Source of the DNA: a virus
Taxonomy: Duplodnaviria; Heunggongvirae; Uroviricota; Caudoviricetes
IMG/VR virus record: IMGVR_UViG_3300007072_000340
Location: 30,216 to 94,215 of that record
Length of the DNA stretch: 64,000 nucleotides
Strand: one strand, 5' to 3'
In this document: in pieces, positions 24,565-63,481 of the stretch
Numbering within the stretch: position 1 is the first letter of the stretch
How the letters are laid out: each line of letters begins with the position of its first letter
Program-made: the position numbers and the translations under genes
Notes under the pieces: generated by a model
Told to the model about the DNA's origin: nothing
Database searches by the model: none
What the model saw: the letters and a program-made list of their open reading frames with translations, nothing else

Positions 24565-24573
24565 AGCCCACCT

Positions 24574-25605: not shown

Positions 25606-25616
25606 GCTGCACCCCG

Positions 25617-26648: not shown

Positions 26649-26659
26649 GTTTCACCTCG

Positions 26660-37145: not shown

Positions 37146-37242
37146 TGTTGTTCTCCAAGGCTGGGTTCTCCGCTCGGCGCTGCAAGTCACCGCGACTCGT
37201 TCAGCCGCCGGAGCGACCTTTCACCGAACCCCTGAGAGGTTT

Positions 37243-40568: not shown

Positions 40569-42380
40569 TCAGGTCTGGTTCCCTTTGATTTTGGTGCCCC
40601 GGCCGCGCACGCGCGGGGCCGTCGTGGGCTGCAAGTCCGTATTGCGGCTCACCGCCTTCTCCTCCTCGCCCGCGTTCGGATTCGCCGACAAGTCGGCTAC
40701 ACCGCGAGCCGAAGGGTCGCTCCCGCCTTTGTTTCCGCGCGCCACGCCCTGGGCCTCGGCAATGCGTTTCACACGCTCCAGATGGTCGGCGCGGGCTTGC
40801 AGGTACTCGTCCTCATCGAAGCCCAAGGCCATCGAACCCGTCTTTTCGCCGACCAGTCCGGCTTGCACGGCCTGAATGACCGTCTGCGGGTCGCTGTTGG
40901 TGTAGTGGGCGCTGTCGATCTCCTGGTTGATCGCCTCCAGATCGTCCACGCTGACCTTGCCGCCCAGGAGGGCCTGGACGATCCCCTTCGACAACTCCCG
41001 CTTCACCTTGCGGCCCGGAACGGCTGACATCAGCTTGTTCAAGTCCTGTGCCTCCTTGATCCGGTCGGCGTCGGTCTTGAGCGAGTACCGATCCGGGTAC
41101 TTGATCGTTGCGATCTCGCGCTTGGCCGGCGTCCGCTCTTCGTAGGCGGCCCAGTGCTCGCAAAGCTGCCGCTCAGCGCTTTCCAGCAGAAGGCCGATGT
41201 AGCTCAGGCCCGCTTCGAGGCCCTGGTTGTCCATCGCCTTCGATTCGGCCGAGGCGCGAACGGCCAGACTCGACACGGCAAGATTGACCAGCTCGCGGAT
41301 GTCCCTCTTCAACCGGTCTTGTAGCTCCAAACTCGCCCGCAGCGGCTCGGCCGAGGGATTGATGAAGCCGGGGGGATTCATCCCTTTGTCGTAGGCCCGG
41401 CCGTGGGTCGCGCCGACCTTGATGTCGGTCTCAGCGGCACCTTGGCCGCCCGTGGTCGCCGTACCGTCCGCCGTGGCGGCGTGCTTCAAGTGGGCACCGA
41501 CCGCCCGCAAGTCCTTCTGCTCGATGTAGAAGGGGAAGTTGCTGCGCAGCGCGTAGCTCACGTCGCTTGAGCCGAGGTTCAGCAGTGCGATCTGGTGCTG
41601 GCACACGTCCTTAATCAGGCTGCTGCCGATGTCCAGCATCACGAACGGGATGCGGGTCAGTTCCAACGCGACGGCACCGGCGGGTCCGCCGAACTGATCG
41701 ACCGGCTCGCCCTTCAGGCTGTAGAATTGCAGATTGACTTTGCCCGTCGCCGGGTCGATCCAAAGGTAACGATACCGCTGCACCTCGATGGTCGGCAGGA
41801 AACTGCCCTGGTCGAACTGCATCACCGTGTCCCGCAGCAGAATCGCCTGGAACTCGGACGGGGCTTCCGGCTTCGAGCAGGTCCACGAAAGGATGTCTTC
41901 GATGTCGTACTTGTAGAGGTACGGGGCCACGCCGCCCACGTCCGCCAAGGTCACGCCCGCCGGCACCGGCGGGGCATCCACGAAGATGCCGACCCGGCCC
42001 ATGACCAACAGCTCGGTCAAGACCTTCACGCCGATGAATGCGTTCATGGTCGAGCCGCGCCGATCCACGCCCAGGTTTAGGCCATTGACCGCGTATTGGT
42101 AGGCTTTGCTTCCTCCCTTGCGCGTGATGTCCCGCATCCTTTGATAGATCGCGTTGCGGATGTCGTTGACGGCCGCACCTGCAAACTTCGGGATCGGCGT
42201 CATGGCCTTGCGGGCGTTGAACTCCGTCTGGTCTTCCCGTGCGGAGAACTTCTCCAGGTAGACCTCCCGGAACTCGTCGCCGCCGCCATAGGTCAAACGC
42301 CACTTGCGCCAATCGGTCATCCCACTGAGATAGCCAGGATGGCGGCTGTCAACCAAGCTGATCGTCTGACTCTCAGGCAT
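40569..42380 (-). CDS. Portal protein
   Basis: 603 aa directly downstream of TerL. Confidence 0.65.
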   Translation of the reverse strand: MPESQTISLVDSRHPGYLSGMTDWRKWRLTYGGGDEFREVYLEKFSAREDQTEFNARKAMTPIPKFAGAAVNDIRNAIYQRMRDITRKGGSKAYQYAVNGLNLGVDRRGSTMNAFIGVKVLTELLVMGRVGIFVDAPPVPAGVTLADVGGVAPYLYKYDIEDILSWTCSKPEAPSEFQAILLRDTVMQFDQGSFLPTIEVQRYRYLWIDPATGKVNLQFYSLKGEPVDQFGGPAGAVALELTRIPFVMLDIGSSLIKDVCQHQIALLNLGSSDVSYALRSNFPFYIEQKDLRAVGAHLKHAATADGTATTGGQGAAETDIKVGATHGRAYDKGMNPPGFINPSAEPLRASLELQDRLKRDIRELVNLAVSSLAVRASAESKAMDNQGLEAGLSYIGLLLESAERQLCEHWAAYEERTPAKREIATIKYPDRYSLKTDADRIKEAQDLNKLMSAVPGRKVKRELSKGIVQALLGGKVSVDDLEAINQEIDSAHYTNSDPQTVIQAVQAGLVGEKTGSMALGFDEDEYLQARADHLERVKRIAEAQGVARGNKGGSDPSARGVADLSANPNAGEEEKAVSRNTDLQPTTAPRVRGRGTKIKGNQT

Positions 42381-42389
42381 GGCCTAACC

Positions 42390-44063
42390 TCACGTCACTT
42401 TCCCGATGTCTTCCCCGCCCGTCGTAATTGGAGCCAGCGTCAGGCCGATGTCTGCGTAGCACAATGAATGCGCGTAATGATCGGGACCTGTATTGACGAA
42501 ACATGCCACCATGTTGCCGGTGTCGTCCTTCACGTAGGTCCGCACCAGGTTCTTGACGTGCTCGCGGTACTCCAGGCTGATGTCGCGCGGCAGCAGGATG
42601 CGGGGCGGATTCGTCTTGAAGCGGCCAAGCGTGCAACTCAACCAGCTTGTGCGGTCCACCGTGGCGAATGGCGCGCCCGTCTCTTCCTCGCTGATCGAAA
42701 CCTCTTTCGCCGTCTGCCCGCGCCGGTAACGGGTCAGCCAGACGTAGCCGTGGAACTTCTTGGCAAACCGCCGGGCGTCGTTGACGTTCGGGTCGGCGTC
42801 CACGACGCACGCCAACACCTGCCACTCCCGCATTAGCTCGCCCAGGTAGTTCCAATCGTCCTCCGCGAACTTGCCGAACCAGAGCAGCTTGCCGATCGCC
42901 GCCGCGCTCACGTCGCTGCCGGGGTGCCGGTCAAACAGCCAATCGACGACCGAGATGTAACCTGTCTTCCCCTGATCCACGCCCATCGTTATCAGACGGT
43001 CGCCGCCGATCTGCGGCCGGGCGTCGTTGATCGTGTGCCCCTTCAGGCACGCCTCGATCATCTCGTCCGTCACCTGGGCACCCACACCGATGAACGGCAC
43101 GCCCAGCTTGCTGCAATGAAACTCCGTCGCCGCCGCTTCGTCACCCAGGCCGCGGTGGTAGGCGATCACCAATTCGCCCGGCGTCACCGTGGAGGAGTAC
43201 AGTTGGTTGATGTAAAAGCCCCGCGACTCCTCCGCCGCGACGTTCGTTTCCGTCGCCTTCCATTGCCCGCCGGCCAGGAAGAGCGGCTTGTCCGCGTGTT
43301 CCAGCTTGTGCTTGCACTCCTTACACTTCAGGAACGATTCCTTGCAGCGCGGGTCGTTGACCGATTCGCCAATGATCTCCGCGCAATCCGGCCAGAGCAA
43401 TTCCGTCCATCGGCCGCAGTGGGGGCATTGGAAGTGAAAATGCTCTTGCGTGCTGGTCAGGTACAGCTTGTGGATGCCGTACTTGGGCACGGTTGGCGTG
43501 GAGACCGCCAGGATGTGCTTCTCCACCTGGCCCGACAGCCGCTCCAGCGCGAGCCACACCGCATGGGTGTCCATCTCATCCAGCTCGTCCAAGACCAACT
43601 CGGACACCGGGATGGACTTCAAGTTGCTGTCGCCACGGCTCCCACGAATGTACAGGACGTTCGTGCCGGTCGATTTCAGCCCCACGGTGTTCGTATCGAC
43701 GAACAGGTCCTTGAGGTACGGGCTGAGCTTCAGGGCGGTCGCAAACCGGGCCTTGGAAAAGTCGCTCGCGTTCAGCGTGGTCGGCAGGACATACAGCACG
43801 TCCCGCTTCAACTGATCGAGCGTGTAGAAGGCCCGATTGATTCCCGTCTCCGTTACGCCCAACTGGGCGGCCTTCATCGCAATCGTCCAGGCCGCCTTGC
43901 TGTCGTGTATCTCACGGCACCACGGGTGACGCCGGAAACCATAAGCTCCGTTGAAGGGTGCTCCCATGACCCGACGATTCTCGGCCCATCGGCTGCAAGA
44001 CGTGAGGGTCTTGCTTTTCAATCCCTCCGTAATGGTCTGCTTCAGAACGTCTACAAGACTCAT
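42390..44063 (-). CDS. Terminase large subunit (GpA-like)
   Basis: Walker A-like AMKAAQLGVTETG, Walker B VLDELDEMD, C-terminal nuclease region GVDQGKTGYISVVDW; Zn-binding CPHCGRW. Confidence 0.8.
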   Translation of the reverse strand: MSLVDVLKQTITEGLKSKTLTSCSRWAENRRVMGAPFNGAYGFRRHPWCREIHDSKAAWTIAMKAAQLGVTETGINRAFYTLDQLKRDVLYVLPTTLNASDFSKARFATALKLSPYLKDLFVDTNTVGLKSTGTNVLYIRGSRGDSNLKSIPVSELVLDELDEMDTHAVWLALERLSGQVEKHILAVSTPTVPKYGIHKLYLTSTQEHFHFQCPHCGRWTELLWPDCAEIIGESVNDPRCKESFLKCKECKHKLEHADKPLFLAGGQWKATETNVAAEESRGFYINQLYSSTVTPGELVIAYHRGLGDEAAATEFHCSKLGVPFIGVGAQVTDEMIEACLKGHTINDARPQIGGDRLITMGVDQGKTGYISVVDWLFDRHPGSDVSAAAIGKLLWFGKFAEDDWNYLGELMREWQVLACVVDADPNVNDARRFAKKFHGYVWLTRYRRGQTAKEVSISEEETGAPFATVDRTSWLSCTLGRFKTNPPRILLPRDISLEYREHVKNLVRTYVKDDTGNMVACFVNTGPDHYAHSLCYADIGLTLAPITTGGEDIGKVT

Positions 44064-49501: not shown

Positions 49502-49609
49502 AATCACGAAATGAGCGCGGCATGGCTTTCTGAACCAAGCTCTGTGCGTCTAACCAAAAAGGAAGGCCCGAAGGCCAAGATGATACCCGGCCTTCGGGCC
49601 TCAGTTTCG

Positions 49610-50722
49610 TCAGAGCAGGTTCACGACCCGCTCGGCCAGGCCCTTTTCGCCCAGCACGACGTTCAGCTTGCCGCTGGTGGCCACCTTCTCCAGGACTTCC
49701 AGTTCCCGGAGCCGCATGAGCGTCGGGTTGCCTTCCAGCACCTTGGCGGTGTTGGCCTGGCTGCGCATGGCCGCCGTCTCCTCACGGCGGACGATCAGGT
49801 TGGCCTCGGCCGCCTTCTTGGCCTCCGTGACCTTGTTCATCAGGTCCTTCATGTCACCCGGCAGGATCACGTCCCGGATTCCCACCGAGATCACCTCCAG
49901 ACCCAGCGCAGCCACCCGCTGCCGAACGATGGCCTCCAACTCCTTGGCCACGGCATCCTTGTCGGCGAGGAACTGGTCGAGTTCGCGAGCGCCAACCACG
50001 GCCCGCAGCGCCAACTGCGCCTCGCGGTAGAGCGCCTGACGGGCGTCGTCGGCCGCGCTCAGGGCCTTGTGGGCGTCGGCCACGCGGTAGGCGGCCACCG
50101 CGTTAAGCCGCAGCGTCACCTTGTCGGCGGTCATAATCTCCTGGCCGCCGATGTCCAGCATGGTCTCGCGCAGGTCCACCGGCACGAGCATGACCTTGGC
50201 CATGTTCTTCCAGAAGGCGTACTTGCCCGGCGGCAGGGTCTCGACGTAGCGGCCGTCCTCGAACAGCACGCCCACGTGGCCCTGCTCCACGGCAAAGGCG
50301 TCCAGGAGCCGGTCGGCCAACGCCGAGCGGACAATCACCTGAAGGTCCTTGTGCTCGAAGCGGACCTTGCGGGCGTCGATCACTTCCGTGGTGACCTCCC
50401 GGAAGGTGGTCCAGTAGGCGTACAGGCCCGGCGGCAGGATGTGGCTGAAACGGCCATCCACCCACACCAGCGCCCGCTCGTAGTCCTTCAGGTCCAGCAC
50501 GACTGCGCGGTCCTTCAGCGCACCCGACTTGACGATCACGTCGAGATTCTCGTGGGCGAGCCACGGCGCGCGCTGCGAGACGACCTCCACCTTGACCTTG
50601 CCCAGCGGGTCGAAGAACCAGTGGCGACCAGCGCCGAGCAAGCCCTTGAACTCGCCGTCGTGGAAGTACAGACCCATTTCGTAGCTGCGAATCCTGATGA
50701 TCTTCAGCGCAAGCACAGTCAT
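49610..50722 (-). CDS. SPFH/Band-7 domain protein
   Basis: Stomatin-like core plus C-terminal ELEVLEKVATSGKLNVVLG typical of band-7 proteins. Confidence 0.6.
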   Translation of the reverse strand: MTVLALKIIRIRSYEMGLYFHDGEFKGLLGAGRHWFFDPLGKVKVEVVSQRAPWLAHENLDVIVKSGALKDRAVVLDLKDYERALVWVDGRFSHILPPGLYAYWTTFREVTTEVIDARKVRFEHKDLQVIVRSALADRLLDAFAVEQGHVGVLFEDGRYVETLPPGKYAFWKNMAKVMLVPVDLRETMLDIGGQEIMTADKVTLRLNAVAAYRVADAHKALSAADDARQALYREAQLALRAVVGARELDQFLADKDAVAKELEAIVRQRVAALGLEVISVGIRDVILPGDMKDLMNKVTEAKKAAEANLIVRREETAAMRSQANTAKVLEGNPTLMRLRELEVLEKVATSGKLNVVLGEKGLAERVVNLL

Positions 50723-51157
50723 CCTTCACCTTCCTTCCTACCGCTTGTTGCGGCAGTCTCCGTCTCATTTCCGGTCATGTCAGGCAAAGCCGTTGGGCGG
50801 CGGAACCAGTGGCGATCACACGGAGGAATGCGGAATGTCGCTTGAGCATCGACGTAGCCTTGGGCGGCACGGCAGCTTCCATCGGGCTAGTCGTCGCCGG
50901 GGGCAAGCCCCGGCGGAAGTCACCCGACATCCGCTGCCACTTGCCGAAGGTCCGACGAAGCGGTATCCACGCACTGCATGGCACTCGGCCGTGCTGCCAC
51001 CCGCGATGGCGTGCCGAGCTTGCGCCGATTCCTCCGGGAGTCGCCCGATGGGCGGACTGCCCGGATTCCTCAACGCCGCCGGTCGTTCATTCGCCGGTGG
51101 CCGATCACACATTGGCCCGCCTCCCTCGGGCCGCTTGGAGCAGGGTTTCAGCCTGCG

Positions 51158-51230
51158 GTCTTGGTACGGGAGTCGAACCCGCGACAGCCAGATTCACGGT
51201 CTGGTGCTCTATCCGCTGAGCTAACCTGGT
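51158..51230 (-). tRNA. tRNA-like (anticodon GUG, His-like), probable pseudogene
   Basis: T-arm GCGGG/TTCGACT/CCCGT and D-arm present, anticodon loop CCGTGAA (C33); acceptor stem pairs poorly. Confidence 0.3.
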
Positions 51231-51339
51231 TGACACGACCTTCGGTCAGAACCCATTGACGGAACAAACGCCGCCAACCGCCTCATGTGAGGACGGGGCA
51301 ACGTGCGCCGTTGGCCTGGCCGTATCATTGCTTATGAAG

Positions 51340-51410
51340 AGACGCCGGTGGGAATCGAACCCACTTGAACCGGGTTGCGGCCGGTCGCCTTGCCATCTGG
51401 CTCCAGCGTC
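51340..51410 (-). tRNA. tRNA-Cys(GCA)
   Basis: Acceptor GACGCUG/CGGCGUC, T-loop TTCGATT, anticodon loop CCGCAAC (C33). Confidence 0.65.
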
Positions 51411-51413
51411 AAG

Positions 51414-51486
51414 CGTCCTCGCCAGGAGTCGAGCCTGGTCTTCGACCTTCGCAAGGTCGCGTGCGAATCCCCCACACTCCGAGGAC
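51414..51486 (-). tRNA. tRNA-Arg(GCG)
   Basis: Perfect 7-bp acceptor GTCCTCG/CGAGGAC; anticodon loop TTGCGAA; T-loop CTCGACT (C54). Confidence 0.55.
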
Positions 51487-51499
51487 CTTCGTTACTCAG

Positions 51500-51571
51500 C
51501 GCCCCGCCGAGGAATTGAACCCCGTCTTGCAGTTCCGAAGACTGCCGTGCTGTCCGGCACACTCGCAGGGC
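51500..51571 (-). tRNA. tRNA-Arg(UCG)
   Basis: Anticodon arm ACTGC/TTCGGAA/GCAGT... read as codon CGA on + strand; T-loop TTCAATT; acceptor with one G-U. Confidence 0.55.
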
Positions 51572-51583
51572 TTTTGCGTCGAG

Positions 51584-51676
51584 TATCCCGACCAGGAATC
51601 GAACCCGGGCACCGCCGCGCAGCGGTGGTCGCTGGAGCTTCGGAGGCTCCGATGCGATCCGCTACACCATCGGGAC
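51584..51676 (-). tRNA. tRNA-Arg(CCG)-like with 18-nt palindromic hairpin (caccgc cgcgca gcggtg) in the variable region
   Basis: T-arm CCGGG/TTCGATT/CCTGG, anticodon arm GGAGC-TTCGGAG-GCTCC on + strand (codon CGG); 93 nt total. Confidence 0.4.
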
Positions 51677-51762
51677 ATGAACCAAGGAGCCGACGACTGG
51701 ACTTGCACCAGCATCAAGCGGTTTACAGGACCGCTGCCTTTCTGTTCGGCCATGTCGGCAAG

Positions 51763-51832
51763 CACGAGCGCGAGGAGTCGAACCCCGTGCGGCAGGGTTG
51801 GAGTCTGCCTGCTCTCCCAAGAGCACGCTCGT
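51763..51832 (-). tRNA. tRNA-Trp(CCA)
   Basis: + strand anticodon loop gttggag (codon TGG, U33); acceptor ACGAGCG/CGCTCGT; T-arm CGGGG/TTCGACT/CCTCG. Confidence 0.5.
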
Positions 51833-51876
51833 GTATTGCCCCCGGCCACGAGGACCGGGGGCTTCTGGCGTAACGA

Positions 51877-52473
51877 CTACTTCTGCAACTCCACGTTCCA
51901 GTAGGCTTCGCTGATGAACTTGGACCAGCTTGCGATCCGCATGGTGTGGTCCGCGTACAGCGGCTTCCACGTGGGCCGGACGGGCTGCTTGCGCACGCGC
52001 ATCCGGGCCTGCTCCGGCGTCCGGTCAGCCTTCCGCTTGTTGCAGGCCATGCAAGCCAGCACGCAGTTTTCCCAACACGACACGCCACCTTGTGACCGCG
52101 GCAGCACGTGGTCGATCGTCAACTCCTCACTGCCCGGCTGCGCGCCGCAGTATTGGCAGGTGTAATGGTCCCGCTTGAACACGTTGCGACGGCTGAAGGT
52201 CACCGCGCCCAGCGGAAGCCGATCGTAGCCGGTCAATGCCACGACCTCCGGCACCCGCAGCCGGAACCGAACTGCCTGGACGAACGCCTCGCCATCCTTC
52301 GGCTTCAGCTTCGACCAGTCCGCCCAGGTGTAAAGCTGGAAGTCTTCGGGGTCCACCACGCGGGCCGACTCGTTCCAGAGCAGCACCAACGCACGCTCCA
52401 CGGTCGCTACGTGGACCGGCTGCCAGTTGCGGTTCAGGACCAGCGTCGGTTGCTCAAGGACCTTGGTGACCAT
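51877..52473 (-). CDS. HNH endonuclease embedded in the tRNA array
   Basis: HNH core CQYCGAQPGSEELTIDHVLPRSQGGVSCWENCVLACMACNKRKADR; flanked by tRNA-Trp (downstream) and tRNA-His (upstream). Confidence 0.8.
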   Translation of the reverse strand: MVTKVLEQPTLVLNRNWQPVHVATVERALVLLWNESARVVDPEDFQLYTWADWSKLKPKDGEAFVQAVRFRLRVPEVVALTGYDRLPLGAVTFSRRNVFKRDHYTCQYCGAQPGSEELTIDHVLPRSQGGVSCWENCVLACMACNKRKADRTPEQARMRVRKQPVRPTWKPLYADHTMRIASWSKFISEAYWNVELQK

Positions 52474-52492
52474 TGTGATCTCCGTCAGTAAG

Positions 52493-52567
52493 GGTGTCCG
52501 GGGAGAGTCGAACTCCCACCCTCTGGTTCACAGCCAGCCGTGCAGTGACCGCTACACCACGGACACC
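52493..52567 (-). tRNA. tRNA-His(GUG)
   Basis: Anticodon loop CTGTGAA, extra 5' G(-1) opposite C73 (His hallmark), acceptor GTGTCCG/CGGACAC. Confidence 0.7.
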
Positions 52568-52585
52568 ATGCGATTGTTGTCAGCA

Positions 52586-52655
52586 CCCCGACCGGGACTC
52601 GAAGTGCGGAACACCTCGGTAGAAACGAGGCATGATGTCCATTTCACCATCGGGG
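52586..52655 (-). tRNA. tRNA-Arg(UCU)-like, irregular T-arm
   Basis: Clean anticodon arm cctcg-gtagaaa-cgagg (codon AGA) and acceptor ccccgac/atcgggg, but T-stem does not pair. Confidence 0.35.
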
Positions 52656-52659
52656 CAAG

Positions 52660-52749
52660 CGGAAGGCATGGGATTTGAACCCACATGACACCTTTCGGCG
52701 TCGCACGGTTTAGCAAACCGGCCCGGCCAACCGTATCCGGCTACCTTCC
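52660..52749 (-). tRNA. tRNA-Ser(GCU)
   Basis: Type II, 90 nt; anticodon loop ttagcaa on + strand (codon AGC); long variable hairpin gacacc-tttc-ggcgtc; G73. Confidence 0.65.
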
Positions 52750-52764
52750 GTAATCACGCATCAG

Positions 52765-52835
52765 TGGACCGACCGGGAATTGAACCCGGATCTCCAGAAT
52801 GCCGTTCTGGTGTCTTCCCCTTGGACCATGAGCCC
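52765..52835 (-). tRNA. tRNA-Ala(GGC)
   Basis: G3:U70 pair present, A73; anticodon loop ACGGCAT (C33); T-arm CCGGG/TTCAATT/CCCGG. Confidence 0.7.
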
Positions 52836-52864
52836 GTTGTCGTTGTAGTGGACCCGACCACCGC

Positions 52865-52940
52865 TTCGCGGCGGTGCCCGGAGTCGAACCCATCGCACCG
52901 ATCTTGCACCCGATCAGTCGCCTCCACGGAACATGCCAGC
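52865..52940 (-). tRNA. tRNA-like element, unresolved (degenerate T-arm)
   Basis: gagtcgaaccc T-loop signature at 52882 but no consistent cloverleaf found by hand. Confidence 0.2.
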
Positions 52941-52951
52941 CCACGAATCGA

Positions 52952-53042
52952 AAGGTCTGTCCGGGAATTGAACCGGGCACCATGCGCAGCATGGTCCTTC
53001 CGCCTTACCGAGGAGGTGTGCTACCGAAACACCTACAGACCC
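52952..53042 (-). tRNA. tRNA-like element with palindromic insertion accatgc-gca-gcatggt, unresolved identity
   Basis: aattgaa T-loop signature, D-arm gtg-tgctaccgaaa-cac, acceptor aggtctg/cagaccc; anticodon not assignable. Confidence 0.25.
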
Positions 53043-53047
53043 TCAAG

Positions 53048-53120
53048 TGATCCCCGCTGGCATCGAACCAGCACTTTCCTGGTTGTCACCCAGGCGTCTT
53101 TGCCATTGGACCAGGGGATC
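53048..53120 (-). tRNA. tRNA-Val(GAC)
   Basis: Acceptor GATCCCC/GGGGATC perfect; anticodon loop ttgtcac on + strand (codon GTC); A73. Confidence 0.7.
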
Positions 53121-53127
53121 ATTCCAG

Positions 53128-53201
53128 TGACCGGAGTGGGAGTCGAACCCACAGGCACGAGGCTCTCGACCTCGCCGCTATGCCAGTTTGCGTACCCGGT
53201 C
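53128..53201 (-). tRNA. tRNA with Leu anticodon GAG but short (5-nt) variable loop
   Basis: Anticodon arm cgagg-ctctcga-cctcg (codon CTC, C33), D-arm cgc-tatgccagttt-gcg, A73; 74 nt. Confidence 0.5.
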
Positions 53202-53285
53202 GTGGCGGGTCCGGGGGTCGCACCCGGCGTTCCCGGCTTATGAGGCCGGGCTGAGCACTGGCCCACCCGCAGCATGTTTCCGAGT

Positions 53286-53372
53286 TGCAGGCCCCGGTAT
53301 CGAACCGGGCGCACCGGCCCGACCAACCTTCGGTCGGTGCCCGGAGCCAGTTGGGCACCTGCCGCGCCTGCA
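53286..53372 (-). tRNA. tRNA-like element, unresolved (about 85 nt)
   Basis: Perfect T-arm cccgg-tatcgaa-ccggg and acceptor tgcaggc/gcctgca; internal arms not resolved. Confidence 0.25.
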
Positions 53373-53408
53373 ATTCCTCAATGACCACCCGCGCCTGCAA
53401 TTCCTCAA

Positions 53409-53492
53409 TGACCACGGGGAGAGTCGAACTCCCAATGCCGCAAGGGCACGACGTTCTGACCGTCGCGTGTCTGCCAATTCCACCACATGGTC
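53409..53492 (-). tRNA. tRNA-Leu(CAG)
   Basis: Type II with 15-nt variable arm; anticodon loop ttctgac on + strand (codon CTG); D-arm gtg-tctgccaattc-cac; A73. Confidence 0.7.
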
Positions 53493-53501
53493 ATGCTGCC
53501 T

Positions 53502-53594
53502 GAGTGGCCCGTGCGGGAGTTGAACCCGCCTTTCCGGCTGACCATGCTGCGCATGGTGCCCGGGCCGGCGTCCTGTACCGATAGACGAACGAGC
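53502..53594 (-). tRNA. tRNA-like paralogue of tRNA-Glu(55603) carrying an 18-nt palindromic insertion in the anticodon loop
   Basis: Shares acceptor, T-arm, D-arm (gtc-ctgtaccgata-gac ga acgagcc) with 55603..55675; anticodon stem ccggc/gccgg encloses 25 nt including ccatgc-tgc-gcatgg. Confidence 0.35.
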
Positions 53595-53602
53595 CAGTTG
53601 AG

Positions 53603-53686
53603 TGCGCCGGGCAGGAGTTGAACCTGCATAGCCTTTCGGGCTGGCTGCTTTACAGGCAGTTGGGCACGCCGATGCCCAGCCGACGC
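53603..53686 (-). tRNA. tRNA-Tyr(GUA)
   Basis: Type II; variable hairpin agcc-tttcg-ggct; anticodon loop tttacag (codon TAC); A73. Confidence 0.7.
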
Positions 53687-53700
53687 ATGTTGTTCGTGAG

Positions 53701-53774
53701 TGGCGCAGGTGGGACTCGAACCCGCAATCACCAAGGTTTGAGCTTGGCCGCTTTGCCGATTTGCGTACCGCGCC
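53701..53774 (-). tRNA. tRNA with Leu anticodon CAA but short variable loop
   Basis: Anticodon arm ccaag-gtttgag-cttgg (codon TTG, U33); D-arm cgc-tttgccgattt-gcg; A73; 74 nt. Confidence 0.5.
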
Positions 53775-53788
53775 GCCACTGGTCGAAA

Positions 53789-53864
53789 GCGCCCTCGACG
53801 GGATTTGAACCCGCGATCTCCTGCGTGACAGGCAGGCGAGCACTCCAGGCTGCTCCACGAGGAC
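53789..53864 (-). tRNA. tRNA-Asp(GUC)
   Basis: Anticodon arm cctgc-gtgacag-gcagg (codon GAC); T-loop TTCAAAT; G73. Confidence 0.7.
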
Positions 53865-53876
53865 AAACATTTCCAG

Positions 53877-53951
53877 TGGCCCAGGCGGGACTCGAACCCA
53901 CAGCATCCCTGGTTCTAAGCCAAGGTGGTCTGCCAGATTGCCTACGGGGCC
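53877..53951 (-). tRNA. tRNA with Leu anticodon UAG but short variable loop
   Basis: Anticodon arm cctgg-ttctaag-ccaag (codon CTA); D-loop tctgccagatt like 53128 and 53701; A73. Confidence 0.45.
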
Positions 53952-53952
53952 G

Positions 53953-54046
53953 TGCCCAGGGCCGGAGTCGAACCCGAAACCGCCTGCCACCACCGCTACG
54001 CGGCGGTGCCCGAGCCAAGCCGCTCTGCCAATTGGCGTACCTGGGC
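53953..54046 (-). tRNA. tRNA-like element with hairpin caccgc-tacgcg-gcggtg, unresolved
   Basis: D-arm cgc-tctgccaattg-gcg and acceptor gcccagg/cctgggc match the 53128/53701/53877 family; T-stem and anticodon arm irregular. Confidence 0.25.
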
Positions 54047-54053
54047 GATCAAG

Positions 54054-54125
54054 TAGCCCCGGATGGAGTCGAACCATCGTTTCCTGGGTGTGGACCAAGC
54101 GTCGTTGCCGTTGGACCACGGGGCT
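54054..54125 (-). tRNA. tRNA-Val(CAC)
   Basis: Anticodon arm cctgg-gtgtgga-ccaag (codon GTG, C33); D-arm gtc-gttgccgttg-gac as in Val(GAC); A73. Confidence 0.65.
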
Positions 54126-54137
54126 GAGTCGCCAAAG

Positions 54138-54208
54138 TGGAGTCACCGAGAGTCGCACTCGGATTTCCATCTTGCGGAGGTGGCGTCGTCCTGTTGGACC
54201 ATGACCCC
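54138..54208 (-). tRNA. tRNA-Ala(CGC)
   Basis: G3:U70, A73; anticodon loop ttgcgga (codon GCG, C33); T-loop TGCGACT non-canonical. Confidence 0.55.
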
Positions 54209-54214
54209 AAAAGG

Positions 54215-54300
54215 CGGAAGCCGTGGGACTCGAACCCACAAGCGGCTGCTGGCCGCCACCTGTTTTCAAGACAGGCCCCTCATCCGGCCGGATGACTTCC
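54215..54300 (-). tRNA. tRNA-Ser(UGA)
   Basis: Type II; variable hairpin gcggc-tgctg-gccgc; anticodon arm cctgt-tttcaag-acagg (codon TCA); G73. Confidence 0.7.
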
Positions 54301-54309
54301 GTATTGAAG

Positions 54310-54380
54310 CTGCGGAGGCTGGAATCGAACCAACATGAAGACGTTCAGAGCGTCTCATCCTACCGTTAGATGACTCCGCA
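54310..54380 (-). tRNA. tRNA-Gln(CUG)
   Basis: Anticodon arm agacg-ttcagag-cgtct (codon CAG); perfect acceptor tgcggag/ctccgca; G73. Confidence 0.7.
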
Positions 54381-54418
54381 TTGCGTTGCTCATCGAGACA
54401 CCGCCATGTCGTCGCAAG

Positions 54419-54489
54419 TTCGGGGAGGAGGGGTCAAACCTCCGTCTCCTGGTTCAAAGCCAGACGGCCTACCACTAGCCGATCCCCGA
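54419..54489 (-). tRNA. tRNA-Gln(UUG)
   Basis: Anticodon arm cctgg-ttcaaag-ccaga (codon CAA); T-loop TTTGACC atypical. Confidence 0.55.
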
Positions 54490-54490
54490 G

Positions 54491-54562
54491 AGTGCCCTGC
54501 GGGAATCGAACCCGCCTAGCCAGCTTGGAAGGCTGGAGCCTTTGCCGATCGGCCAAGGGCAC
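54491..54562 (-). tRNA. tRNA-Gly(UCC)
   Basis: Fully canonical cloverleaf checked base by base; anticodon loop CTTCCAA; U73. Confidence 0.8.
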
Positions 54563-54567
54563 GAAGG

Positions 54568-54651
54568 CGGAAGGTGAGGGAGTCGAACCCCCAAGGCTCG
54601 TCGCTCGGCCGCTTTCGGGGTGGCTGCCATCGCCAGTTGGCTTGACCTTCC
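54568..54651 (-). tRNA. tRNA-Ser(CGA)
   Basis: Type II; anticodon arm gccgc-tttcggg-gtggc (codon TCG, C33); G73; perfect acceptor ggaaggt/accttcc. Confidence 0.55.
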
Positions 54652-54666
54652 GTTCTCTCCAAAAGG

Positions 54667-54754
54667 CTCCGGCGGCTGGACTCGAACCAGCGGTGGGGCA
54701 AACGCCACGTCGCCTTAACAGGCCGATCCCTGCTACCAACTCGGGTACACCGGA
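54667..54754 (-). tRNA. tRNA with Asn anticodon GUU carrying a 16-nt hairpin in the variable region
   Basis: Anticodon arm tcgcc-ttaacag-gccga (codon AAC); D-arm ccc-tgctaccaactc-ggg; 88 nt. Confidence 0.4.
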
Positions 54755-54762
54755 TCACAAAG

Positions 54763-54836
54763 TCAGGACGGCGGGATTTGAACCCGCGCTCTCGTGCTCC
54801 CGAAGCACGCGGAATACCGGGCTTTCCTACGTCCTG
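54763..54836 (-). tRNA. tRNA-Pro(CGG)
   Basis: Anticodon arm cgtgc-tcccgaa-gcacg (codon CCG); D-arm ggaa-taccgggct-ttcc; A73. Confidence 0.7.
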
Positions 54837-54846
54837 TTAATCAAGA

Positions 54847-54916
54847 GCGCCCAGCGGGAGTTGAACCCGCGCTTCCGCCTCGGCAAGGCGGCAGGCTGCC
54901 GCTACATCATGGGCGC
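54847..54916 (-). tRNA. tRNA-Gly(GCC)
   Basis: Anticodon arm ccgcc-tcggcaa-ggcgg (codon GGC); perfect acceptor; U73. Confidence 0.7.
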
Positions 54917-54949
54917 GATCTCATGTGGGCCGGATTGTCAAAGATCAAG

Positions 54950-55021
54950 AGCACCGGGCGGGACTCGAACCCGCGTCGCCGCATTACGGGTGCGGTGTCC
55001 TTGCCGCTGGACGACCAGTGC
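54950..55021 (-). tRNA. tRNA-Thr(CGU)
   Basis: Anticodon arm ccgca-ttacggg-tgcgg (codon ACG, C33). Confidence 0.6.
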
Positions 55022-55032
55022 GTTTCTCGCAG

Positions 55033-55105
55033 TGGGACCAGAGGAACTTGAACCCTCACCTGGCGGATTAAGAGTCCGCTGTGCTGCCGCTAGCACCTTG
55101 ATCCC
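55033..55105 (-). tRNA. tRNA-Lys(CUU)
   Basis: Anticodon arm gcgga-ttaagag-tccgc (codon AAG); T-loop TTCAAGT; A73. Confidence 0.7.
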
Positions 55106-55121
55106 GTCTTTTGTCCACCAG

Positions 55122-55194
55122 TCGGCGCGGAGGGAGTCGAACCCTCGACCTGACCCTTATAAGAGGTCTGCTCTCACCGCTGAGCTACACGCCA
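55122..55194 (-). tRNA. tRNA-Ile(UAU)
   Basis: Anticodon loop CTTATAA (codon ATA on + strand); D-arm gctc-tcaccgct-gagc; A73. Confidence 0.6.
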
Positions 55195-55199
55195 GCGAG

Positions 55200-55271
55200 T
55201 AGGGCCGGAGGGGATCGAACCCACATCTGCCGGATTAAAAGTCCGGTGTGCTGCCATTACACCACGACCCT
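55200..55271 (-). tRNA. tRNA-Lys(UUU)
   Basis: Anticodon arm ccgga-ttaaaag-tccgg (codon AAA); A73. Confidence 0.7.
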
Positions 55272-55341
55272 GTACTTGGTCGGGCGTATGCGTTTCAACC
55301 GGGTCAACATCGTTTCACTCCTCGTGTTTGTTCGCGCCAAG

Positions 55342-55413
55342 TGGTAGTCCTGAGAATCGAACTCAGCGCCGCGCGGTTATCAGCCGCGTTCGGGCAACCA
55401 GCCCTCGACTACC
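55342..55413 (-). tRNA. tRNA-Ile(GAU)
   Basis: Anticodon arm cgcgg-ttatcag-ccgcg (codon ATC); perfect T-arm ctgag-aatcgaa-ctcag; A73. Confidence 0.65.
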
Positions 55414-55439
55414 TCGTGCCAACGTCGTTGTCGATCCAG

Positions 55440-55512
55440 TCGGGATGGCAGGACTCGAACCTGCGTCTCCGTGCTCCCAAAGCACGTGGGCTCGCCGCTA
55501 CCCTACATCCCG
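55440..55512 (-). tRNA. tRNA-Pro(UGG)
   Basis: Anticodon arm cgtgc-tcccaaa-gcacg (codon CCA); same anticodon stem as Pro(CGG); A73. Confidence 0.7.
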
Positions 55513-55520
55513 CACCTCAG

Positions 55521-55595
55521 TCAGAACGGCCGGATTTGAACCGGCGATCTCCTGCACCCCGAGCAGGCGCGATACCCAGGCTTCGCTACGTTCTG
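55521..55595 (-). tRNA. tRNA-Pro(GGG)
   Basis: Anticodon arm cctgc-accccga-gcagg (codon CCC, C33); perfect acceptor cagaacg/cgttctg; A73. Confidence 0.6.
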
Positions 55596-55602
55596 ATCGC
55601 AG

Positions 55603-55675
55603 TAGCCCGTGCGGGAGTCGAACCCGCCTTTTCGGCTTGAAGGGCCGATGTCCTCAACCGATAGACGAACGAGCC
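55603..55675 (-). tRNA. tRNA-Glu(UUC)
   Basis: Anticodon arm tcggc-ttgaagg-gccga (codon GAA, C33); D-arm gtc-ctcaaccgata-gac. Confidence 0.6.
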
Positions 55676-55734
55676 GCGTCGGCGCGCACCTTCCACGCAG
55701 CCGGAACCCAGGTTGGCGCGCACGCTCAGCGTAG

Positions 55735-55806
55735 TGGGCCGGGAGGTGCTCGAACCCTCGTCTGCTGCTTTTCAGGCCGCCGCTACACCATCTCAGCTAC
55801 CAGCCC
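55735..55806 (-). tRNA. tRNA-Phe(GAA)
   Basis: Anticodon arm gctgc-ttttcag-gccgc (codon TTC); D-arm gct-acaccatctc-agc; first tRNA of the array in transcription order. Confidence 0.55.
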
Positions 55807-55810
55807 AACG

Positions 55811-55852
55811 AAAAAACCCGGTGTCACTTCCACTTGTGACACCGGGTTTCTT
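55811..55852 (-). terminator. Rho-independent terminator (strong on minus strand, bidirectional-like)
   Basis: 11-bp perfect stem cccggtgtcac/gtgacaccggg, loop ttccactt, A-run one side and T-run the other; sits upstream of the tRNA array, downstream of the 56.2-57.5 kb genes. Confidence 0.7.
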
Positions 55853-56242
55853 GAAACCCATCGTGACGTAAGGTCAAGCGTCACAAGCGCAAAGGATGCA
55901 CGGGCAGGGTATTCGCCGGTTGACCGGCGTAACGCCCTGTGCATCGTGGTTCGCTTGCTATACTTGACCTAAACGAAGTCATCGCCCTTCTCGCAAGTTC
56001 TGGTGCTCCTGGAAACCGGCCGACTGCATCCGTCGGCCCTTATACGTATAGACGCCGCAGGGGCCAAGAAGGTTCATCGGATTTTTCGTCGTCGTCGCCC
56101 CAGTAATAGTATAGATACTCTTCGAGGGCGGCTTATTCCCTCGAAAATGCCGAAAAGCCGCTACCAGCCTGCCGCTTGGCCCTGTTGCCTGCCGGCTCGC
56201 GCCGGCCGGTGGAGGACTCTCCGCGCGGGGACGCGACCGCGG

Positions 56243-56533
56243 CTATGGCCGTTGTTTCTTCTTGCCGGCGGTCTCGGCCGCCGTCCGCATCTCTGTTTGC
56301 ACAGCTCGCGTGTCGGCGATGATCGCCGACAGGGCCTCGCAGAAAGTCTGCGCATCCAGCAATCGCAAGGGGTTCTGCATCGACGCAGCCGGAAAGGTGA
56401 CAATAATCTCAGAGCCACGACCGGCCCTGTAGTTCCTGATCTCGGAACGAATCACCATCGCGCTGCTTGCGGTCCCCTGGAAAGGTTGCGCCGTCAATCG
56501 AACGCCCCAGTCAAAGTCCTCACGCTCGATCAA
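56243..56533 (-). CDS. Hypothetical protein
   Basis: 96-aa ORF MIEREDFDWGVRLTAQ... Confidence 0.4.
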   Translation of the reverse strand: MIEREDFDWGVRLTAQPFQGTASSAMVIRSEIRNYRAGRGSEIIVTFPAASMQNPLRLLDAQTFCEALSAIIADTRAVQTEMRTAAETAGKKKQRP

Positions 56534-60470: not shown

Positions 60471-61271
60471 CTAGCTGCAAGCGGCACAAGCCGGCTGTCG
60501 TTTCGTCACGTTGCCCAGGTACTCCCTGCCGAGATAGCGGTCGATTAGCCGCCAGACCATCATGTGCGTGAACACGCCCCCTTCGGGCCGGCGCTTCGTC
60601 GGCCGTGTCTTGAAACCCTGTTCGTTGAGCCAGGTCACGATCTTGTCGAGCGTCTGGCCTTCTTCTCGCCGGCGCTTGATCTCGGGCACGAGAACCTGCT
60701 GATACCGCTCCCTTGCCTTCTGGGCATTGGCGGCCGAACCCAGCGGTTGCGCCTTCCTGACGCCTCGCAGGTGCTCGCGTCCGTCCCAATGACCGGGCCG
60801 CGCCGAACCGAGCAGCTTGCCCCTGGCCTTCGTTGCCGCCAAGGCCGCCTTCGTGCGGGCCGCGATCTGGCGGGCCTCGTGTTCCGCTACGGCCGCGAGG
60901 ACTTGAATGTTGAACCGGTCGGCATACGGGTTGTCGCAGCACACGAAGTCCAATTCCGCGTGCAGCAGGCAATTCAGGAAGTAGCAGTTGCGGGCTAGCC
61001 GGTCCAACTTGGCGACCACCAACGTCGAATTGGTCAGCCGGGCATGGTGAATCGCCTCTTGCAGCTTCGGCCGCGCCGATTTCTTGCCGGTTTCGATCTC
61101 GATGTACTCAGCAATCACGGTCGCGCCGTGGGCGAGCACCAGTTGGCGGACCATTTCCTTCTGGGCTTCCAGGCCCAGGCCGCTCTTGCCTTGCTTCTTC
61201 GTGCTCACGCGGTAGTAGGCGACGATCTTGATGATCTTCTCGATGCTGATGCTCACGGTGGCTGTCTCCAA
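60471..61271 (-). CDS. Small serine recombinase (resolvase/invertase family)
   Basis: Catalytic region VAYYRVSTKKQGKSGLGLEAQ, LVVAKLDRLARN, C-terminal HTH-like region. Confidence 0.75.
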   Translation of the reverse strand: METATVSISIEKIIKIVAYYRVSTKKQGKSGLGLEAQKEMVRQLVLAHGATVIAEYIEIETGKKSARPKLQEAIHHARLTNSTLVVAKLDRLARNCYFLNCLLHAELDFVCCDNPYADRFNIQVLAAVAEHEARQIAARTKAALAATKARGKLLGSARPGHWDGREHLRGVRKAQPLGSAANAQKARERYQQVLVPEIKRRREEGQTLDKIVTWLNEQGFKTRPTKRRPEGGVFTHMMVWRLIDRYLGREYLGNVTKRQPACAACS

Positions 61272-62737: not shown

Positions 62738-63481
62738 TCACGACGGCACCGCCACCTTGCTGCCCTGGGTCCGCTTCCTGATGTTGCCGAGCCATTCCTT
62801 TCCCAGGTAGCGGCCGATCAGCCGCCACACGGCCGTCTGGGTGAAGGGCTTGCCGGCCGTCGTAACCTTGCCTTGCTGGTTCAGCCACTCGACGATCTCC
62901 GGCAGGGTGTCGCCCCGTTCCCGCCGGGCCTTGATCTCCGGCATCAAGTAGGCATAGGTGTTTTTCGTCCGCTCCTTCTTCTTTCGGGCCGCTGCGGCAA
63001 TCGCCAGCTTCGTCCCCCGCAGGTGCTCCCGGCCCTTCCAGTGATTCGGGTTCGCCGATGCGAGTTTCACGCCCCGCGCCTTCGCCGCGGCCAACGCGGT
63101 CTTGGCCCGGTCACTGACTTTGCGGGTTTCTTCCTCAGCCACGTTCGCAATGATATGGATGGTCGTCCGATTGATGTCGTGGTTGTCCAGGCACACGAAG
63201 TCCACCTGGCTCTCCAACAGCAGCCGAGTTGCCGGGACGTTTCGAGCCAGCCGGCCCAGGTGGCAAACGACTAACGTAGCCTCAGACCGGAGCGCATGTT
63301 CGACGGCCTTGGGGAACTCCGTTCGCCGGTTGTGCTTTCCCTCCTTCTCCGTGTACGTGGCGATGATCCGTCCGTTGTTGTAGCTGACGAACCGCTCGGC
63401 TTCTTCTCGCTGCGCCGCAAGGTCAACGTGCAAACGGCTTTTCTTCGGCCAGGACCGGTAGTAGACGATGTAGCGTTTCAT
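62738..63481 (-). CDS. Small serine recombinase, paralogue of 60471..61271
   Basis: IVYYRSWPKKS...LVVCHLGRLARN...FVCLDNHD...NHWKGREHLRG parallels the first recombinase. Confidence 0.65.
   Translation of the reverse strand: MKRYIVYYRSWPKKSRLHVDLAAQREEAERFVSYNNGRIIATYTEKEGKHNRRTEFPKAVEHALRSEATLVVCHLGRLARNVPATRLLLESQVDFVCLDNHDINRTTIHIIANVAEEETRKVSDRAKTALAAAKARGVKLASANPNHWKGREHLRGTKLAIAAAARKKKERTKNTYAYLMPEIKARRERGDTLPEIVEWLNQQGKVTTAGKPFTQTAVWRLIGRYLGKEWLGNIRKRTQGSKVAVPS

Follow-up and report, generated by a model that had tools for sequence, protein, structure and literature searches.

Short-armed leucine tRNA genes in the tRNA array of an uncultured tailed phage

The stretch of DNA analyzed here (the window: 64,000 nucleotides (nt), positions 30,216 to 94,215 of IMG/VR virus record IMGVR_UViG_3300007072_000340) comes from an uncultured tailed phage and carries an array of roughly 40 tRNA genes. 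Three of these, tRNA-Leu(GAG), tRNA-Leu(CAA), and tRNA-Leu(UAG), combine a leucine anticodon with a variable loop of only 5-6 nt, and so lack the long variable arm that is the hallmark of tRNALeu. From comparison of their sequences with those of other phages and bacteria, we think it probable that the three genes are functional type I Leu isoacceptors, charged by a host leucyl-tRNA synthetase (LeuRS) that does not need the arm, the reading being weakest for Leu(UAG). This kind of tRNA is already known: it has been characterized experimentally in Streptomyces, and occurs, mostly annotated simply as tRNA-Leu, in many phages.

Results

Structure of the three genes

ARAGORN folds each of the three genes as a cloverleaf with a leucine anticodon and a 5-nt variable loop, placing the ends at 53127-53201 (GAG), 53700-53774 (CAA), and 53876-53951 (UAG), that is, 75-76 nt including one extra 3′ base; all three exceed the gathering score of 29 bits for the Rfam tRNA family RF00005 (Table 1). 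The combination of short loop and Leu anticodon proposed in an earlier note on this DNA is therefore real. The variable loops are UGCCU in Leu(GAG), UGAUU in Leu(CAA), and (G)AUGCU in Leu(UAG), well short of the stem-loop of more than 10 nt that defines a type II tRNA, and to be compared with the 15 nt (UGCCCUUGCGGCAUU) of the canonical type II tRNA-Leu(CAG) which the earlier note had correctly placed in the same array. The discriminator is A73 in all three genes, as the note had said, and is followed by an encoded C74 and then by T, so that the CCA end is incompletely encoded in each. In Leu(GAG) and Leu(CAA) the D stem is of 3 bp and the D loop of 11 nt, AAAYYGGCAWA, a layout shared with Leu(CAG) (D loop GAAUUGGCAGA); the note had extended this D arm to Leu(UAG), where it does not hold, and had quoted a D-loop motif which is genuine but is the plus-strand complement of genes that lie on the minus strand.

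The identity set of the Escherichia coli type (A73, A14, A15-U48, and the placement of G18G19) is complete in Leu(GAG) and Leu(CAA), whereas Leu(UAG) has A73, A14, and G18G19 but not A15-U48. Short loops, A73, and Leu anticodons set all three apart from tRNASer, tRNATyr, and tRNASec, which have a long variable arm and, in the case of Ser, G73; neither G3.U70, as in tRNAAla, nor G73 together with a long arm is found in any of them. Nor do they have the relaxed, A/U-rich body of animal mitochondrial tRNALeu, as G18G19 and the T loop GUUCGA are canonical and G+C content is 62-65%. Minimum-free-energy folding gave energies no better than those of shuffled sequences (z -0.8 to -1.6) and often did not predict the cloverleaf; folding energies are thus uninformative, and support comes from covariance models and from covariation across phages rather than from thermodynamics.

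A covarying family of short leucine tRNAs

We aligned 40 short Leu tRNAs, namely the three window genes together with genes from IMG/VR contigs, cultured phages, and Streptomyces and Kitasatospora, a sample collected by similarity and hence biased. In this alignment 97.4% of stem cells pair, compensatory changes on both sides of the stem are seen in 19 of the 20 pairs, and the covariation score is 0.887 as against 0.206 in shuffles (none of 500 reaching 0.887) and 0.08-0.16 in slid-partner controls. U8, A14, G18, G19, A35, the run G53-U54-U55-C56, A58, C61, and A73 are invariant in all 40 sequences, and the Levitt pair 15-48 itself covaries, being A-U in 31 sequences, G-C in 5, and U.U in the UAG subfamily. 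The first acceptor pair is most commonly G1.U72 (23 of 40), and is G1-C72 in the three window genes.

A covariance model of type I tRNALeu built without window sequences (R1) ranks Leu(CAA), Leu(GAG), and Leu(UAG) above every other tRNA of the array, the best non-Leu tRNA, Val(GAC), scoring 62.8 bits and the long-armed Leu(CAG) 55.9 bits (Table 1). Leu(CAA) and Leu(GAG) score 17-20 bits above Val(GAC) and are, as judged from sequence, clear members of the family; for Leu(UAG), the assignment depends chiefly on its nearest relatives. When the anticodon was masked and the variable region removed, 14, 12, and 12 of the 14 nearest neighbors of the three genes still proved to have a Leu anticodon. 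The identity of each gene to a type I Leu tRNA from some other phage (0.75-0.78) exceeds its identity to neighbors in the array (0.64-0.69), suggesting that these are old lineages and not decaying local copies. We considered and rejected two other origins: recent local duplication, because each gene is nearer to the tRNAs of other phages; and descent from a Val tRNA with a shifted anticodon, because the margin of Leu(CAA) and Leu(GAG) over Val(GAC) is large and the nearest neighbors are Leu tRNAs.

The ratio of short to long genes in these arrays (similarity-collected and therefore biased) is 35:8 for Leu, 0:15 for Ser, and 1:8 for Tyr. Loss of the arm in Leu tRNAs fits the known behavior of the synthetases, as seryl-tRNA synthetase (SerRS) needs the long arm and bacterial tyrosyl-tRNA synthetase (TyrRS) uses it, whereas bacterial LeuRS need not (reviewed in PMC9976931). 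The single short Tyr gene among the nine in the arrays examined is a 73-nt tRNA-Tyr(GUA) with a short variable loop in Microbacterium phage Cece, where it adjoins a normal 84-nt tRNA-Tyr.

Relatives in other phages and in bacteria

The earlier note had regarded type I-like Leu tRNAs as unusual in bacteria and phages alike. For cellular bacteria this is borne out, Streptomyces and Kitasatospora being the known case; for phages it is not, since short Leu tRNAs are carried by many cultured Actinomycetota phages, by an Acidobacteriota phage, by cyanophages, and by IMG/VR contigs. A blastn search of 50,697 phage records with window Leu(CAA) matched 38, all of them Actinomycetota phages and nearly all annotated as tRNA-Leu, the closest being gene 114 of Mycobacterium phage Wildcat (88.5% identity over 61 nt), whose Leu genes 113/114 are 73 and 74 nt long. 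Comparable lengths are found in Bonray, a Bixzunavirus (Leu(cag) 86, Leu(gag) 74, and Leu(caa) 75 nt), Gordonia phage Boopy (75, 76, and 75 nt, plus one of 89), Microbacterium phage Cece (75, 82, 75, and 75 nt), Rhodococcus phage NiceHouse (75 and 74 nt), and the Mycobacterium abscessus prophage prophi86-1 (76 and 76 nt). In Curtobacterium phage Yappy and in Microbacterium phages Zooman and Big4, Leu(UAG) has tRNA-Leu relatives at 79.7% identity, and it has a weaker match in the Acidobacteriota phage Tunturi_5 (Tunturiibacter), where Leu tRNAs of 78-79 nt stand beside long ones; the T4-like cyanophage Prochlorococcus phage P-SSM7 has an annotated tRNA-Leu(UAA) of 73 nt.

Scanning IMG/VR with a degenerate pattern built from the D arm and the T arm gave nine further contigs (42-60% G+C) with arrays containing 75-81-nt Leu tRNAs, up to four isoacceptors in a row, while Ser and Tyr tRNAs in those contigs are 83-94 nt long. 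One member of the family is annotated with a different isotype: gene 88 of Mycobacterium phage Knocker, 77% identical to window Leu(GAG) over 73 nt, is labeled tRNA-Gln(caa). The label is probably wrong, apparently reflecting an isotype-model mismatch that plausibly arises because Leu isotype models expect a long arm. Isotype covariance models, which the earlier note had proposed as a test, are not decisive on Leu identity. The similarity searches returned no enterobacterial phages, though such searches are not an unbiased census; and the literature searched yielded no publication about phage tRNALeu with a short arm, most subscription journals lying outside its coverage.

Codon supply and codon meaning

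Leucine codons in the window genes are CTG (48%), CTC (21%), TTG (19%), CTT (8%), CTA (3.6%), and TTA (0.7%), and the sole isoacceptor absent from the array, UAA, matches the nearly unused codon TTA. The earlier note had suggested codon usage as a check and had allowed that the short tRNAs might be charged with a different amino acid. We aligned ten conserved window proteins with those of IMG/VR relatives that lack tRNAs, and asked how often the relatives have Leu at each window codon: the values are 84% for CTC, 82% for CTT, 82% for TTG, and 72% for CTA (few positions), compared with 83% for CTG. As CTC, CTT, and TTG match Leu as often as CTG, the codons are not recoded; all are in use and aligned with Leu, with no sign of reassignment, and the suggestion of a different amino acid finds no support, CTA being somewhat lower on a small sample.

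Hairpin-disrupted neighbors

The earlier note had also described a fourth family member carrying a hairpin insertion, at 53953-54046. The Leu-type acceptor stem, D arm, and A73 are indeed present, as is the hairpin, but the R1 alignment places this 24-nt GC-rich insert (a strong hairpin, z -3.28) within the anticodon loop, so that no anticodon can be read; the T stem has two mismatches, and the Rfam score is below the gathering score. The locus is probably a disrupted gene and not a decoding tRNA.

The insert is one of six copies of a GC-rich palindromic element of about 24 nt ending GGTGCCCGG, present in both orientations and, in the window, only within the tRNA array; one pair of copies is complementary at 24 of 24 positions. 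In the sense orientation the element forms the long variable arm of Arg(CCG) and Thr(GGT), and in the inverted orientation it interrupts the anticodon loops of two genes, the fourth member, whose insert is an inverted copy of the element in the Arg(CCG) variable region, and a gene at 53505-53595. It also truncates a remnant tRNA at 52836-52951. The gene at 53505-53595 (minus strand) is a paralog of tRNA-Glu(UUC) at 55602-55675 (minus strand), 88-92% identical in both halves, in which a 25-nt loop containing the element takes the place of the 7-nt anticodon loop and the first anticodon-stem pair has undergone a compensatory change from U-A to C-G. In intron mode ARAGORN calls both disrupted genes tRNA-Thr(ggt) with an 18- or 22-nt intron. 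We rejected this call as an artefact, because the GGU is supplied by the inserted element, and one of the genes is a Glu(UUC) paralog and the other has a Leu scaffold. We know of no bacterial machinery that splices such tRNA inserts.

The array, the cassette, and the phage

The window phage is siphovirus-like, with a G+C content of about 63%. No cultured phage has a large terminase (TerL) more than 26% identical to that of the window phage, the portal protein has no tblastn match, and a near-identity search of cultured phages with the array returned only trivial 45-nt tRNA matches, so that the phage cannot be placed by similarity. IMG/VR holds more than 80 contigs with terminases 60-94% identical to the window TerL, and in none of 80 such relatives does a tRNA lie within 10 kb of TerL. 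Both flanks of the array region could be located in at least 16 IMG/VR relatives; in about a dozen, homologs of the flanking genes (at about 49.4 kb and 56.26 kb of the window) are only 190-440 bp apart, as opposed to 6.7-7.4 kb in the window. The tRNA array, the SPFH/Band 7 gene, and the HNH endonuclease gene thus make up an inserted accessory cassette which the relatives lack, and the array is a horizontally acquired one. Pfam and PHROG scans of 30 window proteins revealed no aminoacyl-tRNA synthetase and no tRNA-repair gene. The best matches of the HNH gene are in a 595-kb uncultured phage, an Acidobacteriota phage, cyanophages, and rhizobiophages, Mycobacterium phages being the most numerous. 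Terminator-like sites are no commoner than in shuffles.

Table 1. Principal features of the window
Feature	Position	Strand	Remarks
Tape-measure protein gene	28381-32145		
P22-type coat protein gene	35748-37190		
Portal gene	40569-42380		
Large terminase (TerL) gene	42390-44063		
Accessory module (SPFH/Band 7 gene, tRNA array, HNH gene)	49530-56250		about 6.7 kb; missing from related phages
SPFH/Band 7 gene	49610-50722		
tRNA array with Leu genes	51157-55806	-	36 ARAGORN tRNAs, at least 3 further Rfam hits, several disrupted or sub-threshold tRNA-like stretches
HNH endonuclease gene inside tRNA array	51877-52473	-	PHROG 16726, E 3.7e-33
Hairpin element copies	51599-51640, 52855-52887, 52973-52996, 53540-53563, 53978-54012		
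Type I tRNA-Leu(GAG)	53128-53201	-	ARAGORN; Rfam 42.0 bits; R1 79.6 bits
Canonical type II tRNA-Leu(CAG), 15-nt variable arm	53409-53492	-	ARAGORN; Rfam 45.1 bits; R1 55.9 bits despite 10-nt insertion
Type I tRNA-Leu(CAA)	53701-53774	-	ARAGORN; Rfam 54.3 bits; R1 83.3 bits
Type I tRNA-Leu(UAG), divergent subfamily	53877-53951	-	ARAGORN; Rfam 37.4 bits; R1 64.2 bits
Leu-scaffold tRNA-like gene (fourth member)	53953-54046	-	Rfam 22.7 bits (below gathering score); R1 36.9 bits

Ser and Tyr tRNAs of the window array retain their long arms, and Arg(CCG), Thr(GGT), and Asn(GUU) reach 90-94 nt through inserted variable arms. C33 replaces the near-universal U33 in 10 of the 36 ARAGORN tRNAs (His, Cys, three Thr, Ala, Leu GAG, Val CAC, Pro GGG, and Glu; for example His at 51157-51229, Cys at 51339-51410, and Glu at 55602-55675, all on the minus strand); the C33 share in 16 other phage arrays is 0-33%, and 0-17% where the array has at least 5 tRNAs. 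Several unrelated viral contigs likewise have a Leu(GAG) whose loop is UCGAGAG. Adjoining Leu(GAG) with zero spacer is a gene called tRNA-Met(CAT) (53202-53271, minus strand) which is aberrant, being 70 nt long with the T loop GUGCGAC and a sub-threshold Rfam tRNA score of 18.9 bits; its best Rfam match, also sub-threshold, is a tymovirus tRNA-like element at 33.6 bits. A 27-nt tandem duplication (93% identical) at 53357-53410 covers the 5′ end of the tRNA-like stretch that lies upstream of Leu(CAG). Rfam finds tRNA genes missed by ARAGORN at 54138-54208, 52584-52656, and 54569-54651 (minus strand), the first of which resembles tRNA-Ala(CGC), has G3.U70, and is unusual in its T loop, UGCGACU, and the last of which is a long-arm tRNA of the Ser/Sec-like class. 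Anticodons unusual for a bacterial system (51121-55194 and 51413-51486, minus strand) include tRNA-Ile(UAU), tRNA-Arg(GCG) in place of ACG, and two tRNA-His(GUG). Elsewhere in the window, five tandem head-to-tail genes of 343-351 amino acids each lie among the tail genes at 22454-27697 (minus strand), the second and fourth products being 38% identical (E 8e-64), and two serine-recombinase genes of the resolvase/invertase type (60471-61271 and 62738-63481, minus strand) lie a few kb from the array.

Discussion

Comparison with known leucine tRNAs

The closest characterized system is the chromosomal type I tRNALeu(CAA) of Streptomyces coelicolor, which has the 5-nt variable loop ACAGC and is leucylated by the single LeuRS of that species with a kcat/Km of 6.25 s-1 uM-1, the corresponding value for the long-arm isoacceptor UAA being 14.2 s-1 uM-1 (Fan et al. 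2019, NAR 47:6369, PMC6614811). That enzyme requires at least 5 variable-loop nucleotides and A14; U8-A14 and C74 are important, and A73 is immaterial (PMC6614811). All three window genes have the corresponding elements (a Leu anticodon, a variable loop of at least 5 nt, U8, A14, and A73-C74). The S. coelicolor gene resembles them further in G18G19, the U8-A14 pair, a 3-bp D stem, its length of 74 nt, and coexistence with long-arm isoacceptors. It differs in having a 10-nt D loop, G15-C48, and ACAGC, the counterparts in window Leu(GAG) and Leu(CAA) being an 11-nt D loop, A15-U48, and UGNNU; in being chromosomal and vertically conserved in Streptomyces and Kitasatospora, where the window genes are phage-borne; and in that its leucylation has been measured, the window genes being known from sequence alone. 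A genome scan starting from the loop sequence of Fan et al. found 66 type I genes of 74-77 nt, in Streptomyces and Kitasatospora, in 80 loci. Streptomyces and window genes align in one covarying family at an identity of about 0.68, 74 nt being too short to resolve descent; phages are not mentioned in Fan et al. (PMC6614811).

The short tRNA-Leu genes of cultured phages have in common with the window genes the scaffold UA-CGC-AAAnnGGCAAA-GCG-G, the variable loop UGNUU, A73, an anticodon stem extended to 6 bp with G26.U44, a matching set of isoacceptors, and a location within tRNA arrays; Bonray, whose short Leu genes are numbered 86/87, resembles the window in mixing a long Leu(CAG) with short GAG and CAA genes. 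The tRNAs are 75-88% identical, and the window phage is unrelated to Wildcat, Bixzunavirus, and the others (TerL at most 26%). Canonical bacterial type II tRNALeu also shares A73, A14, A15-U48, G18G19, the 3-bp D stem, and the 11-nt D loop, but has a variable stem-loop of 10-20 nt and a length of 83-95 nt, where the three window genes have 5 nt. G37 is usual in readers of CUN codons, and the window genes have A37.

A 2023 review of identity describes tRNALeu as long-armed everywhere except in animal mitochondria (PMC9976931). For E. coli LeuRS the arm is nevertheless dispensable, identity is independent of the anticodon, and A73, A14, A15-U48, and G18G19 are what matter; E. coli tRNALeu variants without variable and anticodon arms are still charged if A73 and the tertiary contacts between D and T loops are kept (PMC9976931). 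These variants are engineered, however, and not natural, and E. coli LeuRS rejects the natural Streptomyces type I tRNALeu. Animal mitochondrial tRNALeu has a short variable loop, as do the window genes, and its A73 and A14 are used for identity; but its body is relaxed and A/U-rich, it is served by its own LeuRS, and S. coelicolor LeuRS cannot charge it (PMC6614811), whereas the window genes have canonical bacterial D and T loops.

A proposed route to charging

Of the two possibilities raised in the earlier note, that of genuine Leu isoacceptors with altered recognition is favored by i) covariation within the family; ii) conservation of A73, A14, G18G19, and A15-U48, the last lacking in Leu(UAG); iii) loss of the arm specifically in Leu tRNAs; iv) the meaning of the codons; and v) leucylation of the Streptomyces counterpart. 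We infer that the three genes would be transcribed together with the array and the tRNAs released by RNase P and 3′ processing, with the host CCA-adding enzyme completing the 3′ ends because only A73-C74 is encoded. Host LeuRS would then attach leucine without reading the anticodon, relying on the acceptor end and on the D-loop/T-loop/hinge region (U8-A14, A15-U48, G18G19 with U55C56, and 5 or more nt in the variable loop); recognition of this kind would render the long arm dispensable, and the most economical mechanism is that the arm was lost for just that reason. The GAG tRNA would decode CUC and CUU, CAA would decode UUG, UAG would decode CUA, and the long-arm CAG would decode CUG, so that every Leu codon save the nearly unused UUA would be served.

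Evidence weighing against this reading, and alternatives to it

A number of observations speak against functional, Leu-charged tRNAs. Within the genes, Leu(GAG) has C33 in place of U33 (loop UCGAGAG), the T stem of Leu(CAA) contains the mismatch C50.A64, and in Leu(UAG) the D stem comes down to two Watson-Crick pairs in a shifted register, alongside a C6.U67 mismatch in the acceptor stem and U15.U48. On R1 the margin of Leu(UAG) over Val(GAC) is only 1.4 bits, the family sample carries the bias already mentioned, and the array Val tRNAs also have a 3-bp D stem and GGCAAAG, which means that the D arm alone is not Leu-specific. A scan for sigma-70-like promoters found none. Host signals conflict, as tRNA similarity points to Actinomycetota, and the HNH gene and one tRNA match point to an Acidobacteriota phage. 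Finally, not every LeuRS accepts such a tRNA: the E. coli and S. purpurogeneiscleroticus enzymes failed to charge Streptomyces type I tRNALeu (PMC6614811), and a contact between Arg921 of Mycobacterium tuberculosis LeuRS and the long arm has been proposed to be critical (PMC3561953).

We think it unlikely that one or more of the genes, Leu(UAG) above all, are decaying or non-functional copies which owe their cloverleaf to descent and are uncharged or unused. The array certainly holds damaged genes (the two hairpin-disrupted genes, the remnant at 52836-52951, and the Met-like gene at 18.9 bits), Leu(UAG) combines an acceptor mismatch with a weak D stem and a low R1 margin, and its codon CTA is rare. 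Yet the odd D arm of Leu(UAG) is common to the tRNA-Leu of Yappy, Cece, Zooman, and Big4, and, being shared across phages, is a conserved variant, while Leu(GAG) and Leu(CAA) reach 80-83 bits on an independent model of a family in which nearly every pair shows compensatory change. It is very improbable indeed that the short tRNAs are charged with another amino acid or ambiguously, the phage recoding or mistranslating CUC, UUG, and CUA. Absence of the tRNALeu hallmark, the Gln label of the Knocker family member, and the inability of some LeuRS enzymes to charge type I tRNALeu (PMC6614811) might be taken to suggest it; but relatives have Leu at CTC, CTT, and TTG positions as often as at CTG (CTA being lower, over few positions), the three genes have neither the Ala nor the Ser determinants, synthetases that read the anticodon would by the identity rules reject GAG, CAA, and UAG (PMC9976931), and the Streptomyces type I tRNALeu does accept leucine (PMC6614811).

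A different proposal accepts charging with leucine but assigns the tRNAs a mainly anti-defense role, arm-less tRNALeu evading host nucleases, toxins, or quality control for which the long arm is the recognition feature, and so sustaining phage translation when host tRNALeu is depleted. Such a role would accord with the proposal that phage tRNAs serve as replacements insensitive to nucleases (van den Berg et al. 2023, PMC10264068), human SLFN11 offers an analog, its cleavage of tRNA-Leu being poorer when the arm is missing, the abundance of C33 may be another sign of selection on nuclease-exposed features, and the array is a horizontally acquired cassette. We nonetheless consider this role improbable, as the literature searched yielded no bacterial nuclease that reads the tRNALeu arm, the arms of Ser and Tyr tRNAs are retained, a long-arm Leu(CAG) is still present in the phage, and a neutral account suffices in which LeuRS does not need the arm and deletions are tolerated in compact phage genomes. 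Broader still, and in our opinion doubtful, is the speculation that arm-less tRNALeu is a general, selected hallmark of phage tRNA cassettes in Actinomycetota, Acidobacteriota, and Cyanobacteria hosts, which would free leucine decoding from arm-reading host factors (defense tRNases, toxins, and quality control), with Streptomyces tRNALeu(CAA) being of phage descent and C33 in 10 of 36 array tRNAs forming part of the same evasion syndrome.

Implications

We wish to emphasize that the window genes, read as functional type I Leu isoacceptors, are an ordinary instance of a short-arm Leu family. The sole characterized bacterial exception to long-arm tRNALeu is one Streptomyces tRNA, but short-arm Leu tRNAs are common in phage cassettes, often as several adjacent isoacceptors and with Ser and Tyr arms kept, and seem to be under-reported; annotation pipelines can mislabel them, the tRNA-Gln(caa) of Knocker being one example. 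Because some LeuRS enzymes reject type I tRNALeu, arguments about host range and codon supply must allow for LeuRS compatibility. Wildcat and Bixzunavirus, growing on Mycobacterium smegmatis, offer a ready system for asking whether mycobacterial LeuRS needs the arm, as the proposed role of Arg921 in the M. tuberculosis enzyme would imply.

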